A stretch of 64,000 bases of DNA from a virus (Duplodnaviria > Caudoviricetes). This document shows, piece by piece, positions 2,748 to 18,783 of this stretch; position 1 is the first letter of the stretch; every line of letters starts with the position of its first letter. Below the pieces are notes generated by a model. It was not told the DNA's origin. It saw only the letters and a program-made list of their open reading frames with translations, and did no database searches. A program made the translations under genes and the position numbers. The stretch lies in IMG/VR virus record IMGVR_UViG_3300023218_000062; one strand, given 5' to 3'.

Positions 2748-3920
2748 CTACACCTCTATGTCCTCAACTACATCTAAAGTTGTTTCATATTCTTCCAAAT
2801 ACTTTTTAGCATTTTTCATGATAAAATTCTTGTAATCTATTTCCTTACCAGAATATAATCCCATAGCAATATTGAATTGATCCCGCTCCAGTTTTTGTTG
2901 TCCTTTTATAGCATAATCTTTACGCGCTAAGCTCTTGTGAGCTTCGTAAAAGCTATTAGATGCTTTCAAGAGCCGATTCATCATATGGGATACAAAAATC
3001 TCCATGTTTTCAATCTCACGGAGAGCTTGTTCGTCATCTTCGAACATTTGACGTAAATCATCAGACGCTTCTTCTAATACAACTGCCATCAATCTCTTAG
3101 GACTGGTTACAGAATCTTTGGCATGATGCAACGAAACATATTCATTAGTTTTTATCTTAACCATGGTTCCATCTTTTAAACGAATGACATATCCTTCAAT
3201 ACCTTTCATATCGGGAATTGAATTTACAAAATTTTCTACGGTAGAAAAATTTAACACTTCATCTAAATGATTTTTTACTAAAAAGGGGCTCAACCCATAT
3301 TCTTTCATCTCATCAAAAGTCATAAAAGAAAAATCTTCTCTGGATCTAACACCTAGAACAACTAAAGAACAATTTGTATATGGTAAAACTATACGATTTT
3401 TTGCAGAACAATATTCCATGTTCACAGTATAATTTTTGTTTTCCAGGATATTAATATGTTCATGTAAAGTTTTTCCAGTATCGGGATTTTTCATTTCACT
3501 GGCCAAACGATATGCTTCTTCGGCCATCATTGAAGTCAATGAGGTTTTAGATTTATATCTAACATTCATTCCATAATCTAGATAAGAAGATATCAAAGAA
3601 CCATCTTCCTTAGTAGCAATGTAATCAACGTTATCATTTGAAAAATCTAGATCCATGGTAAATGGGTTTTCGCCAAGATTGAAAAATTTGGGAAAAGGAA
3701 GTGAAACCAATTCGGGTTCCTTACCCAAAAGGAACATATGCCCTCGACATTCTAACGCATTTTCTCGTAAAAAATCGGTATATGAACCCAAACGATAAGA
3801 GAACACACGATAGGTTTTCCCGTCATGTGGGCATAATTGATCAACGTGGTAGAACGGAGATTCCTCGTCAGAAGACAATTCCATCAAGTTGTTATATAAG
3901 TTTTGTGTGATATTATTCAT
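2748..3920 (-). CDS. rnlA: T4 Rnl1-family RNA ligase
   Basis: Nucleotidyltransferase motif I ATKEDGSLI (KxDG), N-terminal LECRGHMF and SLPFPKFFNLGENP, motif IV EGYVI and motif V VKIKTNEYVSLH. Sigma70 promoter TTGATT-N17-TATAGT upstream on the minus strand. Confidence 0.92.
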   Translation of the reverse strand: MNNITQNLYNNLMELSSDEESPFYHVDQLCPHDGKTYRVFSYRLGSYTDFLRENALECRGHMFLLGKEPELVSLPFPKFFNLGENPFTMDLDFSNDNVDYIATKEDGSLISSYLDYGMNVRYKSKTSLTSMMAEEAYRLASEMKNPDTGKTLHEHINILENKNYTVNMEYCSAKNRIVLPYTNCSLVVLGVRSREDFSFMTFDEMKEYGLSPFLVKNHLDEVLNFSTVENFVNSIPDMKGIEGYVIRLKDGTMVKIKTNEYVSLHHAKDSVTSPKRLMAVVLEEASDDLRQMFEDDEQALREIENMEIFVSHMMNRLLKASNSFYEAHKSLARKDYAIKGQQKLERDQFNIAMGLYSGKEIDYKNFIMKNAKKYLEEYETTLDVVEDIEV

Positions 3921-11191: not shown

Positions 11192-11564
11192 TAGCGCACA
11201 ATATCATTTATGGACAAACATACAGAACAATTATTGGATGAACTCGATTCTGCTGTATTTTCTAGTGATACGTTCCTTGATAAGGAATCATTAGAAAGGT
11301 TGCAGTATTATGTAAATCGCTGGCAGCGGGAAAGTCAAAACATTCAAACTTTCTTAGAACAATGGGATGAGGAGGAATAACACAATGATAGATACACTTG
11401 AATTCTTGGCACTGACAATTGAACAGGAAGCAATTAATGCAACACCGTCTATCGCTAATGAAGATTATGATTCTCGTATTGAGAGAATAGAAAGACGTAA
11501 GGAACAAATGATTAGAAATATTGTCTAAAAAAGTCTTGACAATCCTTGATAAATAGTTTAGACT

Positions 11565-11810
11565 GTAGTTGTGATGATAAATCACGTTTGCAAATACCGA
11601 TGACAAAAACGGTGGACAAGAGTACATCGTGGGGCAACCCTACAGTATCGGCCATGCTGATCCGGTGATGGTGACAAAGATATTGTGAGTCGGACGCCAA
11701 GCGACCGGCCCAAAAAAATTCTCGTTAATAGACTACAAGACTGGTCCTCGCATGACCGTCCCGATGAGTAAGAGCAAAGGTCGTTAATTGATTTGCCACC
11801 AGTCTTGTTT
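11565..11810 (+). ncRNA. Candidate structured ncRNA A
   Basis: No plausible ORF; promoter TTGACA(11536)-N17-TAGACT. Stems: GTGAT/ATCAC, CGGTG/CATCG, GGG-GCAA-CCC, GTCG/CGAC, and a 10-bp CAAGACTGGT/ACCAGTCTTG followed by a T-run. Confidence 0.6.
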
Positions 11811-12076
11811 TTTAAACATATAAAGAAGAAAAAATGGGCGGTATATCAGCACCTATAAAAAGCTGGGGATGGACAGCCCCTTAAATGATATATTAACCCT
11901 TTTTTCTTTTCACCTATAGGAGAAAAGGTCCGGTTATTCGGGACTTTTATTTTTCCTACTCTAGAGCCTTTACCATAGATTGAACCTATTGTCAAGAAAA
12001 TTAATTATAAAATTTTTCTTGATTTCTAAATAGAAGTTCGGTAGAATGCACTAAATCGAATAAGAATGGAAATCAA

Positions 12077-12244
12077 ATGAACACGTACAAGAAGATTTCT
12101 CTTTATGGTCCGGGTGGTCGTAACTGTACTTGCTGTGGTCCTGCCCCTAAGCATCGGAAGAAGCATGATCGTATGATTAAGCGTCGTGAGCAGCAGAACG
12201 CTAAGAAGAAGATTGAACGAGAAGTGATGGATGTAAATCTCTAA
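12077..12244 (+). CDS. 55-aa basic, Cys-containing peptide (below the ORF-track cutoff)
   Basis: MNTYKKISLYGPGGRNCTCCGPAPKHRKKHDRMIKRREQQNAKKKIEREVMDVNL; promoter TTGATT-N17-TAGAAT upstream. Confidence 0.7.
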   Translation: MNTYKKISLYGPGGRNCTCCGPAPKHRKKHDRMIKRREQQNAKKKIEREVMDVNL

Positions 12245-12289
12245 AAACCGCTTGACATATATGTTTTTTCAGATATAATACTAAGTATA

Positions 12290-12530
12290 AATAAAGTAGT
12301 TCCTGAGCGTCAGAGGGAAAACGGTGTATGAGATCATCGTGGGGAAAACCCTATAGGCCAAATTTGGAAGACTTAAAATAAAACTCATGAAGAACAAATT
12401 AGACGCAGAATTAGAAACTCTGCAACGATACAGGGTCCGGAGGTAATGCCGGTTAGAATGATAGGATAGCGCCTATCACGTTGCCCCGCTAGGTAATTGT
12501 CAATCCCTAGCCTAGTTTGTTCAATTTTAA
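12290..12530 (+). ncRNA. Candidate structured ncRNA B (shares a core with A), directly upstream of tRNA-Lys
   Basis: Promoter TTGACA(12252)...TATAAT(12274). Core AAAACGGTG..CATCGTGGGGAAAACCCTATAGGCCA (12318-12360). Three-way junction GCAACG/CGTTGC enclosing CCGG/CCGG and GATAGG/CCTATC; further stem GCTAGG/CCTAGC. Confidence 0.6.
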
Positions 12531-12535
12531 TCTCT

Positions 12536-12612
12536 GGGTCTGTGGCGCAATTGGTTAGCGCAGTGGACTTTTAATCCATTGGTTGTGAGTTCGAGTCTCA
12601 CCAGACCCACCA
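12536..12612 (+). tRNA. tRNA-Lys(UUU)
   Basis: GGGTCTG acceptor / CAGACCC, anticodon arm GTGGA-CT-TTT-AA-TCCAT, T-arm GTGAG-TTCGAGT-CTCAC, encoded CCA. Confidence 0.96.
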
Positions 12613-12759
12613 ATTTTAATACATAGAAAGTTCATTGGAGGAAAAAATGGACAACCGAGAAGGGGGTGATGAACTTCATGTATATAATGTAAAAGCGGTG
12701 GATGCAATTAAACCGAATTAACGCTTGACAAATGGAATGAGATATGTATAATAGGTTGC

Positions 12760-13420
12760 AAGTGGTCGTTTCAGAGTGAAGGTTCGACACCCTAACCGAA
12801 TAGTTAATCGGCACCTGTTTAACGATTACTTCATGTTTCCAGCCCGATCTAAATATCGGATATGAAACATAAAGAGGCCCAAAGCTGAAAAGGCAACACA
12901 CCTAGAGTGTGCGGTAGAGCCTAAGCTACCTCCGAGGCGGGAATTTTTTAATATTTGGTTGGTTCATCAAGAACACCTTATAATTCGTTACACCGACCAA
13001 AGTTTTTGACTGTAAGTAGTGATGAAATCTTATAGTCTTATCTTCAACAAGCCGTAATTCAATCGGGCTTTGTACTTGAGATTGAACGAGATATTGCTGG
13101 CTGTAGGGTAATATCATCACGTATCTACAGGGCGAGGCTGCCGTCTTAGCAGTCAACATATAGTCTCAGTCTCGCAGAGACTTTATAAAACACAGTGAGC
13201 GCGAGATTAACTGGAAAACGATAACTGGCAGGTTGGGAGAGCGACCCAATGCCCTTGGCGACAAGGCAGCGTAGTGTGACCGGTTTTTGTAGATAACGTG
13301 CAAACCTTGTTCTAGACGAGTTAGGCTAGGAGACGAGAAACTCCGAAAAATCAAATTCAGGGCACATAGCAAGGGCGCTTGTAGCAGTCTGTGAAGCGCG
13401 GCCCGCGTGGAGACTGCTAT
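12760..13420 (+). ncRNA. Candidate large ornate ncRNA (~660 nt; GOLLD/ROOL-like size and context, family not determined)
   Basis: Own promoter TTGACA(12725)...TATAAT(12747), no credible sense ORF, more than 12 stems including GNRA-capped CCTTG-GCGA-CAAGG, a possible pseudoknot, and a closing TAGCAGTCT/AGACTGCTA; lies next to a tRNA. Confidence 0.72.
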
Positions 13421-13461
13421 TTCAATTTCAATGATACTGTATTTTAAGAGGGTGGTGGAAT

Positions 13462-14056
13462 ATGAAATCAATTGAAGAATGGAGCGCAACACGTTGGATT
13501 TTTACCGCAATGGCATCTATCATCTGCCGGATTGATCGGTGAAAAGGTGGTGGAGAGAGAAGTATTTGAAAATAGTTTTCAATATAATGAAGCACGAAAG
13601 ACCGCCATCGCTACATATGAAGCACAGTTGACTGAAATTAATTCCCAACTTCGAAACAACAATCTTTCAGAACGTGAAAGAAGCAATCTACGCTACTCAT
13701 AGTGTATGGCGCAGTAATCATGGAATGGTTGAAGGTGATTGTCCGTCTATTGGATATGGCATTCTGTATGATACTTCTTTGACCAATCCACAGCGAGCTA
13801 CGGCTCAAGCGGCTGACAAACGATACCTTCTGAATCTCTAGCCACAATTGAACAAGCTGAACCTAATGGTATCTTCGCCAGTAAGAATACGGCAGCTACG
13901 TGGGTATTCTGTGTGGGTAGCGCGGGATCGTTAAATCCAGTATACGTTGAAACCAAGGTTACTGCATATCCGTATTATCCAGTTAATGTTGATTATGAGA
14001 CCAACAGGGTTACTCAAGCTGGTGAATCGAATGTTAATGTGACGGTTAACCGCTAG
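13462..14056 (+). pseudogene. Disrupted/fused remnants of probably two adjacent phage genes
   Basis: RBS + ATG at 13462, then protein-like segments in alternating frames: LSSAGLIGEKVVEREVFENSFQY..., THSVWRSNHGMVEGDCPSIGYG..., and SLATIEQAEPNGIFASKNTAATWVFC...VNR*. Confidence 0.55.
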
Positions 14057-14086
14057 ATCAATTGAACGGTAGTCAATATAATAATG

Positions 14087-14116
14087 AAACAGGGGGCTAG
14101 CCCCCTGTTTCTTTTT
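14087..14116 (+). terminator. Intrinsic terminator
   Basis: AAACAGGGGG-CTAG-CCCCCTGTTT followed by CTTTTT. Confidence 0.8.
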
Positions 14117-14170
14117 CGACATAATGTAAGTTTTTCTTGACATTTACGAAAATGATGGTATATTGAAACC

Positions 14171-14974
14171 ATGATGACACTAATCAAAAACCGAGAAATG
14201 TACGATACTTTCGTTAAATTCCTTCCAGAGTTGGAGCGTGACGAAGTATATTTTCTTTCATTGTCAGCACGTAATAAGTATCTGACCGAAGATGAACGTG
14301 AAGCCTATTCTCTCAGCAGAACTGAAATGTTTTCCCGCCATATTGCACATGATAAGGAAGGCATCGAATACGCTATCAAGAAGATGGAAGCCGAACTAGA
14401 AGTAAAGACTACTCGTAGTGGTCATCGTATTCCAGAGAAAGCATTGGTAGTATACTTTAATATTCATCCTTCTTCAATGACCAGAGCGTATACTTCATTC
14501 AAAGATCAAATGAACGCACATTACGATGAAATCGTTAAATCATTGATGAAGGGCTCGAATCCACATTACCATCCATTCTTAGGAATGCGTACTAAGTTGA
14601 TGAATCATATACAAAAATCCTCTTCAAGAAAGGAATGGGTGGATATAGATATTGATATTGATGCACTTGATGAAGAAACCGCATTGCGATATTCTGCATC
14701 GATAGCTAATCCTTTATTCATGCATTCTATCAATAATGTAAGAATCAAGACTCAGGGTGGTGTTCATCTTTTAGTGAAACGGAGCGATCTTAACACGAAA
14801 CCGATGAATATTCCATTGCATAAACTGATAGGAAACATTCATAAAGAACTCAAAGGGCTTGGCGGGGAATGTAAATTTAACAACAACGCCATGGTACCAT
14901 TACCGGGAACTAATCAAGCTGGTAAATTGGTAGTTATTCATGATACAACTCTTGACAATTTAGTTTTAATTTGA
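14171..14974 (+). CDS. Hypothetical protein, possibly AEP/PrimPol-like
   Basis: Own promoter (TTGACA 14137). WVDIDID (DxD) followed by KTQGGVHLLV (GxH) matches the spacing of AEP motifs I/II. Confidence 0.4.
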   Translation: MMTLIKNREMYDTFVKFLPELERDEVYFLSLSARNKYLTEDEREAYSLSRTEMFSRHIAHDKEGIEYAIKKMEAELEVKTTRSGHRIPEKALVVYFNIHPSSMTRAYTSFKDQMNAHYDEIVKSLMKGSNPHYHPFLGMRTKLMNHIQKSSSRKEWVDIDIDIDALDEETALRYSASIANPLFMHSINNVRIKTQGGVHLLVKRSDLNTKPMNIPLHKLIGNIHKELKGLGGECKFNNNAMVPLPGTNQAGKLVVIHDTTLDNLVLI

Positions 14975-15011: not shown

Positions 15012-15493
15012 ATGAGTGCTGGAACACACTATTCACTAGCATTTGATTTAAATAAAATGCAAGCGCTATGTAAAGAAGCAGCGTATAAATTAAATACATA
15101 TCAAAAAGAAAATAAGTGTGATATTGTTTTCATTTATTCTGGAATGTCCGGGATAGCTACAGCAACAGCATTAGCTCATTATTTATATTGCGATTATGAT
15201 ATTGTTGCGCATATGATCTATGTACGTAAAGAAAATGATAACAATCATAACGACTCAATAGTTGAATGGAGCGAGAATAGCCAAAGATATAATAAAGCTG
15301 CTATTTTTTTATTGATGACCTTATTGAAAGTGGAAATACATTTAATCGTACACGAAATTATGCAAGCAGGGCACAATTTATAAAAGCGAAAAAACTTACT
15401 AATAAACATATTGGAACAATTCTTATTGAATTTGATTTAATGTTTAAAATTCCTCAAAAACATGTAATACTTGATAATTATAACCGAGGATAG
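15012..15493 (+). CDS. Type I phosphoribosyltransferase-fold protein (frameshift at T7 run 15304-15310)
   Basis: Shifting frame in the T-run gives IDDLIESGNTF, a PRPP-binding-loop motif. Upstream are SGMSGIATA and YVRKE; the frame ends at TAG 15491-15493. Confidence 0.6.
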
Positions 15494-16921: not shown

Positions 16922-18783
16922 TGGAATCATACTTAATAGCATTATGGAAGGAACTTGACCCATTGCGCAATATTTGACTTTCAAGCTCTGGTTGGGTATA
17001 ATTATCCTAATGGGAGCAATTTCTGCCTACCGTTGAAGATAGCGTTCTTGTAGGTAGTGCATGGAATATTATATGTATTGCGGGGAATATGTCTTATGAA
17101 GAACAGAATAACACATTGAAATTAATTAAGGGGTTTTCGATCAAGGATGGTGCGGATTATATCCTCCAACATATCATTCCAATGATCGAAAAGAAAATGA
17201 AAAGATAATGACAACATGATATAGATTATCATGTTGATAAGCCTAAAACTGATTATATACATGTTTTTGATGAGTATCGTGGTACGGGTCTTGCTGAACA
17301 ATTGCATTATCGTGCTGCAAAATGGATGCAATGTTTTATTGATGATGATTTGGTAAGAACTAAAAAACTCAACGGGCACACTTTTAATTATCTTGATGTG
17401 TCCAAGAACTTACGGCTTGACAGCGTAGCTTAATGACATTAAACTGCTGGAACTCTTTTAAGGAATCTCTCATGAACGAAATGCGAAAGATTGAAGTGTC
17501 CAAGGGAAAATACATTCTTTACAATGATACTTTTTTTGTTAAATCATGCGGCAAACATATTGTATGGACTTCTGCAAGACAGAATGCATATATGTTCGAT
17601 TCAAACATTCAAGTAGAAGATTGCCTTGAAAAAATAAACAAATTTCTTCGTAATAGCACTTGACAGACATGAATTTTTCTGTATAATGGTTCACATGGTC
17701 ATCGGGACCAGACATTAACCCTTCAATCAGGAGAACATAAAGTGAGTAATCGTACTCGGGAATACACTCTGGAAGTCTATCGCAACAAGCGCTATCGTAC
17801 CGTTCATGCTTCTCGCAAGATTTCACAATGTCTCAAGCGAGTGTGGAGCATGTATGACCGTTGCCGTATTCGCCTGAATGGTGAACAGGTGGTTCATCAG
17901 TTTCCTGCCTGTCAGTAAACATCAACTCAAAATTGTGGGGAAGGAACTTCCTTCCCCACACTAATCAATTAAAGGTTGTAAGTATATGAATCTCCACGAA
18001 AAAATCACACATATAAATAAATTGGCAGAAGATTTTGGGCTGACAGTCAAATTCGATTCGGAATTCAAGAAACTGTTCATCTATAATCCTACTCCGGGTC
18101 GCCAGCGTATCAAGGCTATCACAGATTTGTCGTTGGAATCTGTTAAAGAATCTCTCTTTTGGGTTGCATCATCATCCAAGGCATGATATACTAATGTTTT
18201 CATTCCATAAAGGTTCTAACACAATGCAGACAAGTTTTGATGTTTACCAAAACGGAAAACTGATTCACGTTCTACAATTTAACTACGATGTGAGTCCACA
18301 AAAAATCAAACAGGATATGGGAGAACGCGATGGATTTCAAGGACCATTGTTAGTCGTAAAAAAGCCAATGCTTAAAGTGAAATAACACTTGTCAAGCTAC
18401 TTTGAAACTTCTCAGTATGGAGAATGTTCTTAATTTCAAAACATAGGAATATACCGCATGATTACTAAGCAACAGAATGAAATGATTAGAGAGTTACGTG
18501 ACAGTGGATGCGCGGTCATTATTTTTCCGCTAGAAGACCTGAAGGGTGTTGACCCTGAATTAATTGAAGAAGCGCTAATAGTTGAAGGTAACATTATTAT
18601 TGAGAAATTGTCTCAAGAATGATAGGTAACTACTTGTCTAAAAAGGAAAAATGGACTCTCGCAATTCTTTATATGATAGTAATTATAGAGTTTACAGTTG
18701 TCATATACATGGCATCCAATCAATAATAATTTAAATAGTGGTTGCATTATTTGAATTTTTCTATATAATAGATTTCACATTCA

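Follow-up and report, generated by a model that had tools for sequence, protein, structure and literature searches.

The stretch of roughly 660 nt that follows the tRNA-Lys gene of an uncultured large phage of about 270 kb is best read as a composite, in which two conserved motifs, c1 and c3, lie in two tandem small-RNA cassettes together with filler sequence. We give a probability of about two-thirds to this reading, in which the cassettes would be part of a modular array of RNAs whose role, as a guess, would be protein binding or decoy activity. Cassette C-I would extend over about 12760-13008 and carry c1, cassette C-II would extend over about 13042-13421 and carry c3, and the filler between the two motifs would be fast-evolving. 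An earlier note on this DNA had proposed one ~660-nt RNA of the GOLLD or ROOL kind; this headline fails, whereas the proposal of novel structured RNAs beside a tRNA gene holds. All positions refer to the window, i.e., the whole 64,000-nt stretch of DNA that was analysed, and the main features are the following.

12725-12752, plus strand: sigma-70-type promoter TTGACA/16-nt spacer/TATAAT, with a predicted start near 12759-12760
12762-12829, plus strand: motif c1, a three-way junction of about 68 nt (nhmmer homologs in L009 and L087; alignment A6)
12778-13048: segment of 271 nt absent from a co-occurring sister strain, which has AA in its place
12830-12953, plus strand: rest of the putative unit C-I, with hairpins ATGTTTC/GAAACAT, CACAC/GTGTG and GGTAG/CTACC; no known homolog
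12954-13008, plus strand: terminator-like element with a 10-bp stem TTTGGTTGGT/ACCGACCAAA and a 28-nt loop, followed by G-TTTTT-G
13004-13034, plus strand: weak promoter-like element TTGACT-N19-TATAGT
13049-13295, plus strand: 5′ part of the putative unit C-II; no homolog outside the two strains
13296-13421, plus strand: motif c3, roughly 125 nt (covariance model R1; alignment A5)
13463-14056, plus strand: lipoprotein pseudogene, truncated and frameshifted; intact copy in L006
14086-14111: strong bidirectional intrinsic terminator with an 11-bp stem (terminator scan)

The promoter scan returned a perfect sigma-70 promoter, matching the consensus at 12 of 12 positions, just downstream of tRNA-Lys(UUU) (12536-12612, identified by ARAGORN and Rfam), and the dedicated promoter claimed previously was thereby borne out. 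The first canonical terminator downstream of this promoter is the one at 14086-14111. We likewise agree with the claim that there is no credible sense ORF: the longest plus-strand ORF within 12753-13432 has at most 47 aa, and all six frames scored between -0.27 and -0.75 bits per codon with the window's own codon usage, compared to +0.15 to +0.24 for neighbouring real genes. The minus strand is unusually open, with 3 stops from 13501 to 12632; coding on that strand was rejected because of its negative codon usage, the lack of a tblastn match in phages and a translation that is not protein-like, and also because the indels in the c3 alignment are not all multiples of three. A repeat or mobile-element origin was rejected as well, since the corresponding search yielded no second copy of the region's RNA within the window.

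The overall fold of the region is only slightly better than that of shuffled sequences. The whole region had an MFE z-score of -2.06, the segments 12760-13010 and 13040-13432 scored -2.27 and -1.67, respectively, and the number of local 7-mer inverted repeats (6, versus 2.7 ± 2.1 in shuffles) was matched by 35 of 300 shuffles; the description "highly structured" thus does not go beyond chance. The GC content is raised in the 3′ half alone (0.47 versus about 0.36-0.40 in the flanks), so that the region is GC-richer than its surroundings, as the earlier note had it, in that half and not in the rest. All of the stems that had been listed are present in the sequence at the coordinates given for them, as are the T-loop-like motif GGTTCGACACC near the 5′ end, at 12781, and both halves of the suggested pseudoknot, CTGTAG/CTACAG, where the sequence is the same in both strains. 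Of the listed elements, only the 5′ domain with the T-loop-like motif and the terminal stem 13382/13411 received comparative support.

The comparison draws on two independent assemblies (JGI and Logan) that are 100% identical over 11400-14300, on a second strain with roughly 4-8% nucleotide divergence in runs of the same study, and on 85 related loci with a total of about 580 kb that were reached via homologs of a downstream 267-aa protein. The labels L004-L091 denote related metagenomic phage loci, L006 being the sister-strain contig. A sliding nhmmer search of the about 580 kb matched 12764-12883 in L009 and L087 and 13288-13419 in L010, L011, L084, L087, L088 and L090, and gave no match to 12884-13287. 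Homologs were therefore found only for the ~70 nt at the start and the ~125 nt at the end of the supposed single RNA, and c1 and c3 are separated by roughly 470 nt that have none in the related loci. Exact and degenerate c1 and c3 patterns had no match in the viral, genome or metagenome contig sets (the pattern for the metagenome-contig scan was confirmed to match the window itself), the region's RNA had none among GenBank phages and PLSDB plasmids, and neighbour-protein scans of IMG/VR retrieved no relatives. At the sensitivities tried, neither c1 nor c3 nor a third motif, a1, matched Rfam 15, GenBank phages, IMG/VR or the GTDB representatives.

The strongest evidence for a conserved RNA structure comes from c3, which consists of the following elements.

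13306-13311 with 13315-13320, plus strand: hairpin H1
13329-13332 with 13341-13344, plus strand: hairpin H2
13345-13363, plus strand: conserved single strand, followed by a variable linker
13382-13389 with 13412-13419, plus strand: C-stem of the terminal hairpin
13390-13392, plus strand: bulge of the terminal hairpin
13393-13394 with 13410-13411, plus strand: tandem G.A pairs of the terminal hairpin
13396-13408, plus strand: inner hairpin of the terminal hairpin

Covariance model R1 detected 7 distinct c3 copies from at least 5 studies, with E-values from 8e-19 to 1.5e-31. In alignment A5, 95.4% of the cells pair, 9 pairs show compensatory changes and 20 cells are changed on both sides, counts for which the alignment was fitted to the model and which therefore favour structure; an independent MAFFT/RNAalifold run recovered the same helices. 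The covariation score was 0.472, compared to 0.185 ± 0.03 in shuffles, none of 500 of which scored as high, and to at most 0.067 for slid partners. Compensatory changes thus exceed the controls, as is generally expected of a conserved structured RNA, and the abundant G.U pairs fix the plus strand. The sister strain has six substitutions in c3, all of which are compensatory, wobble-compatible or unpaired in the consensus (compensatory at 13309 with 13317, plus 13318; wobble-compatible at 13343 and 13399), and it lacks 12 nt of the linker, a part in which indels occur in other phages too; in total, indels of 1, 6, 10 and 12 nt occur in the c3 alignments. The covariation of c3 is enough to define a new structured RNA family, which has no match in Rfam 15.

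The terminal hairpin appears to be kink-turn-like, judging from the pattern in alignment A5. The K-turn sequence pattern is found in 6 of the 7 aligned copies, with L087 deviating, and the flanking C-stem covaries; an alternative in which the bulge U pairs with the A of GA is just as compatible with the sequence. We also considered c3 as a base-pairing small RNA, as a 12-nt complement to its conserved single strand occurs at 15427-15438. This candidate was rejected because such a complement is about what chance gives and the related loci examined contain no equivalent site.

The evidence for c1 is of a different kind. Its elements are listed below.

12762-12770 with 12821-12829, plus strand: helix P1, which varies between copies
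Within c1, plus strand: helix P1a with a bulged A (MFE fold)
12780-12793, plus strand: T-loop-like hairpin (MFE fold)
12796-12811, plus strand: hairpin P3 (MFE fold)

In alignment A6, the core at 12772-12819 is invariant in 48 of 48 columns among three phages in which a neighbouring orthologous protein is only 52-54% identical, and such invariance is remarkable at a protein identity of only about one half. The same MFE fold was obtained from all three copies. Because only three sequences are available, the covariation evidence for c1 is weak: the two compensatory pairs both lie in P1, 87 of 500 shuffles were as good, and the 13 core pairs never vary. The T-loop-like hairpin carries UUCGACA on a T-like stem of only 3 bp, and its putative assignment is one of pattern recognition from the sequence. 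Neither tRNA nor tmRNA (RF00005/RF00023) was detected at 12760-12830 even at E ≤ 10, and ARAGORN made no tRNA-like call on c1, its sole call in the region being tRNA-Lys.

The invariant core of c1 could equally be a site at the DNA level, and one explanation extends this to the whole region, which would then be mostly decaying DNA at a recombination hotspot, with the conserved blocks acting as cassette ends or protein-binding sites. The slot is indeed hypervariable, a truncated and frameshifted pseudogene adjoins it, the middle evolves as if unconstrained, and the c1 core is invariant and does not covary. We nevertheless regard this explanation as quite unlikely, because many of the G.U pairs that accompany the 9 compensatory pairs of c3 would be A.C mismatches on the other strand, the closing stem of c1 contains a compensatory change, and both motifs are found at fixed distances behind consensus promoters.

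The sequence between c1 and c3 behaves differently from both motifs. In the place of 12830-12953 of C-I, L009 has different hairpins. The element at 12954-13008 is the probable 3′ end of unit C-I, and the one at 13004-13034 may be the decayed promoter of unit C-II; both were read directly from the sequence, as the terminator scan skips the former because its loop exceeds 8 nt and the promoter scan skips the latter because of its 19-nt spacing. The design of the former, a closing stem and U-run around an inserted domain, is also conserved in module a2 of the upstream RNA A. Because the filler holds this terminator-like stem with its U-run and a seemingly decayed promoter, two tandem cassettes are the best reading of the region.

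For 13049-13295, the two strains differ by 8 SNPs, 7 of which fall on MFE-predicted pairs, and 6 of these 7 break the pair while 1 keeps it. The broken pairs include a long-range helix that closes the fold and GGCTGC/GCAGTC, one of the stems that had been listed, which is disrupted by 13140 G>A. With no homolog in about 580 kb and with 6 of 7 SNPs breaking pairs, the middle (12884-13294) does not behave as a conserved structured RNA. The search for homologs and covariation that the earlier note had suggested hence gave a divided result, with c3 covarying, weak covariation evidence for c1, and the middle lacking homologs and having its helices broken by SNPs. A hairpin at 13231-13253, UUGGG-AGAGCGA-CCCAA, resembles the first hairpin of Cyano-2 RNA (13.4 bits, E 0.73), which is probably due to chance.

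The sister strain also lacks 271 nt of the region. The joint 12777->13049 was seen in runs X2 (depth 6.8) and X3 (depth 37.2), and because the shorter side of the joint has only 30 letters, the deletion call is sound and not strong. It removes most of c1 and all of the rest of unit C-I, ends just past the promoter-like remnant, fuses the promoter to unit C-II and leaves c3 intact.

The related loci contain c1 and c3 in combination with two further modules that belong to RNA A in the window.

11606-11728: core a1 of RNA A, a multi-helix structure of about 120 nt, also present in L004, L007, L010, L011 and L087
11730-11818: module a2, also present in L009 (3272-3356) and L084 (1820-1879)

For a1, a single RNAalifold run on 6 sequences gave 13 compensatory pairs, and among the features of the structure are a hairpin with a GNRA cap and a stem that covaries below a 12-nt loop of unchanging sequence, GCUGAUCCGGUG; a1 had no match in Rfam. 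Module a2 consists of a conserved ~55-nt domain in a covarying stem followed by a U-run, i.e., a terminator into which a structured domain is inserted. The 89% relative L004 lacks a2, and in L009 and L084 it adjoins different modules. The order and combination of the modules vary. In L009, a perfect promoter (3361-3388) directly precedes c1, and the next promoter follows about 200 nt later. In L087, c1 is followed by a stem with a U-run, a perfect 12/12 promoter (17793-17820) and then a separate c3 RNA. In L011, the a1 core and c3 lie in this order, 5 nt apart, behind a single promoter, and in L084 c3 is followed by a2. From these patterns, the clade appears to carry short structured RNA modules as promoter-to-terminator cassettes in variable order and combination, and c1, c3, a1 and a2 would form a shuffled set whose members are each flanked in the relatives by their own promoter and terminator. 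A further RNA-like block, …GACCGACAGCC…CACUAAGCACGGAAACUGGCCAGCAUC…, which is absent from the window, was found upstream of c3 in L084 (1575-1665) and behind a separate promoter in L088 (14405-14545), and looks like another module of the same array.

These arrangements bear on the proposal of one large ornate RNA of ~660 nt, of the GOLLD or ROOL kind or a new class of that kind, which would fold as a unit, perhaps multimerise and, like GOLLD, combine a conserved 3′ domain with a variable 5′ domain. A single primary transcript of at least 660 nt is possible, since the scan found no promoter between c1 and c3 in the window and one strong promoter lies upstream; a tRNA gene adjoins in the phage, and c1 and c3 are adjacent in L087 too. 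That same locus, however, parts c1 from c3 by its perfect promoter, and c3 is joined to other modules in L011 and L084. Relatives thus split and recombine the two ends of the supposed RNA, the sister strain retains c3 intact without the 271 nt, the long-range MFE helices are broken by strain SNPs, and the z-score is only about -2. Membership of a known family was not found either. In Rfam 15, cmscan at the gathering score reported tRNAs only and neither GOLLD (RF01998) nor ROOL (RF03087), and a search at E ≤ 10, which took in GOLLD, ROOL, introns, riboswitches, ribozymes, Y RNA and tmRNA, gave nothing relevant on 2.9 kb or on the 701-nt stretch alone. Because no covariance model matched at any threshold tried, the region does not qualify as a GOLLD or ROOL member. 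Many GOLLD members exceed 800 nt, whereas here about 660 nt separate the promoter from the end of c3 and the conserved parts add up to less than 200 nt. One large RNA is accordingly an improbable account of the region, and what survives of the fallback to a "new class" are new short motifs, namely c3 with its covariation, a1, and c1 with its invariant core.

Under the preferred reading of two tandem cassettes, C-I and C-II are perhaps co-transcribed in this strain. Co-transcription is suggested because the internal promoter looks decayed, and transcription might run on through the dead lipoprotein gene to the terminator at 14111. RNA ends, processing and expression are predicted here from promoter and terminator patterns.

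The lipoprotein gene is intact in the sister-strain contig L006, where it encodes a lipobox-bearing protein of 188 aa that is homologous to gp163 of Vibrio phage Quinn. In the window, its start and signal peptide are replaced and a frameshift occurs near 13827. We rejected assembly errors as the cause, which are unlikely because the breaks are identical in the JGI and Logan assemblies. This gene is central to the view that c1 and/or c3 are cis-regulatory leaders, i.e., riboswitch-like elements or protein-binding attenuators of a downstream gene. The sister strain appears to have the promoter, a shortened c3 leader and the intact lipoprotein gene in series, no canonical terminator directly follows c3 in the window, and the stem with a U-run right after c1 in L087 has an aptamer-plus-terminator layout. 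However, what comes after c3 in L011, L087 and L088 is not a gene but additional hairpins or terminator-like stems and another promoter, the downstream genes differ between loci, and no Rfam riboswitch matched. In the window, moreover, c3 has lost none of its conserved features although the gene behind it is dead. We therefore think that a leader function is unlikely.

The RNA block is accessory, as close relatives exist without it. In L004 and L005 (89% protein identity), tRNA-Lys joins straight to window position 14102 and the whole block is absent, and the same slot holds other cargo in L006, L007 and L091. A 24-codon ORF (12648-12722, plus strand) with a strong Shine-Dalgarno sequence (GGAGG, 6 nt, ATG) lies between tRNA-Lys and the promoter and belongs to the block that is absent from L004. 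Nearby genes encode Rnl1, a HerA-like ATPase, an ArdC-like protein and an SprT-like protein, in addition to tRNA-Lys, and a second ligase family, PF09414, is found in the corresponding region of relatives. Inside the RNA array, a conserved and very basic 55-aa protein (12077-12244, plus strand; phrog_25404) with the motif GPGGRNCTCCGPAP is encoded, which is also present in L011 (571-738) and L087 and could be an RNA-binding partner. The array stands as such; the ~1.9-kb island in which the earlier note had placed it is not purely non-coding, because it holds this conserved ORF and the pseudogene.

The downstream 267-aa protein (14171-14974, plus strand) belongs to a large metagenomic phage family with 126 hits and no Pfam match. 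Invariant residues in alignment A1 are D160, D162 and D164 (DxDxD), G197 and H199 (in a GGYH stretch of the consensus), and P243, P245, G246 and Q249 (in a PxPGTxQ stretch). These motifs recall candidate active sites of primase-polymerases or nucleotidyltransferases, and one JGI record calls a homolog "RNA-binding protein YhbY".

Regarding function, the hypervariable cargo slot would lie in an early region transcribed by the host RNA polymerase, and the modules would act as stand-alone early small RNAs through their three-dimensional shape. T-loops and K-turns typically serve as docking sites for proteins and RNAs, and our best guess is that the RNAs serve as protein-binding scaffolds or decoys. 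The aim might be host takeover or counter-defence, possibly against tRNA- or RNA-targeting host factors, which is suggested because tRNA-Lys, two RNA ligases and anti-restriction genes adjoin. A bolder version, which we consider possible though rather doubtful, is that c1, c3, a1 and a2 constitute an interchangeable and so far undescribed phage RNA toolkit of short, independently transcribed RNAs defined by their shape, such as a T-loop junction, a K-turn hairpin and the multi-helix a1 core, with which large phages of this clade bind or mislead RNA-handling or defence proteins of the host early in infection. The RNAs would then act together or with the small basic, zinc-ribbon-like protein encoded among them, and the shuffled order between phages would be a permutation of a multi-part system. 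If it is true that the motifs bind host factors, they would represent a new kind of RNA-based tool for takeover or counter-defence.

GOLLD- and ROOL-type structured RNAs beside phage tRNA genes are a standing puzzle, and the region analysed here differs from them in its organisation. In GOLLD, the 3′ part, which contains pseudoknots, is conserved whereas the 5′ part varies, and both GOLLD and ROOL assemble into RNA-only homo-oligomeric nanocages (14-mer or 8-mer). Like these RNAs, the region is phage-encoded, lies near a tRNA gene and is devoid of coding potential; unlike in these RNAs, the conserved parts measure about 68 and 125 nt and are found separately in relatives, and the sequence between them lacks both conservation and support for a structure. 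A long, stem-rich stretch without ORFs and with its own promoter can thus consist of small functional RNAs interspersed with decaying filler.

The tRNA gene cluster of phage T4 encodes small stable RNAs, "species 1 and 2" (RNAs C and D), which are dispensable and of unknown function. By description and not by sequence, the modules are similar to these, as short non-tRNA RNAs that are encoded next to the tRNA genes of a phage, in its early or middle region, but they have their own sigma-70 promoters and are shuffled between phages. K-turns occur in box C/D sRNAs, in SAM-I, T-box and lysine riboswitches, and in Kt-7 of rRNA. The terminal hairpin of c3 would share with these a Watson-Crick stem, a 3-nt bulge, tandem G.A/A.G pairs and a non-canonical stem, whereas c3 has no C/D boxes and matches no riboswitch family. 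Bacterial Y RNAs (YrlA) are mimics of the tRNA elbow and T-loop. Similar to these, c1 has a T-loop-like hairpin in a compact multi-helix junction that is closed by a long stem and adjoins tRNA and RNA-repair genes; in contrast to these, c1 has no Rfam match to Y RNA or tRNA, and no Ro/TROVE protein was found among the window proteins scanned.

Further counterparts are orphan structured RNA motifs, which are conserved, covarying, intergenic and often phage-associated and have no known function (Weinberg et al. 2017, PMC5737381). The motifs described here are the same kind of object and seem to represent new families of structured RNA within a modular RNA array of the early genes: c3 passes the covariation test, a1 gave a similar picture in a single RNAalifold run, and c1 is no more than a candidate. 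They differ from the published motifs in that c1, c3 and a1 match no Rfam 15 family and in that they are found in promoter-to-terminator cassettes whose order differs between phages. Short and very strongly conserved RNA domains are gained, lost and reordered between these related large phages much like accessory protein genes. Although orphan RNA motifs as such are common, it is unusual to find cassette-like shuffling and a core as invariant as that of c1.
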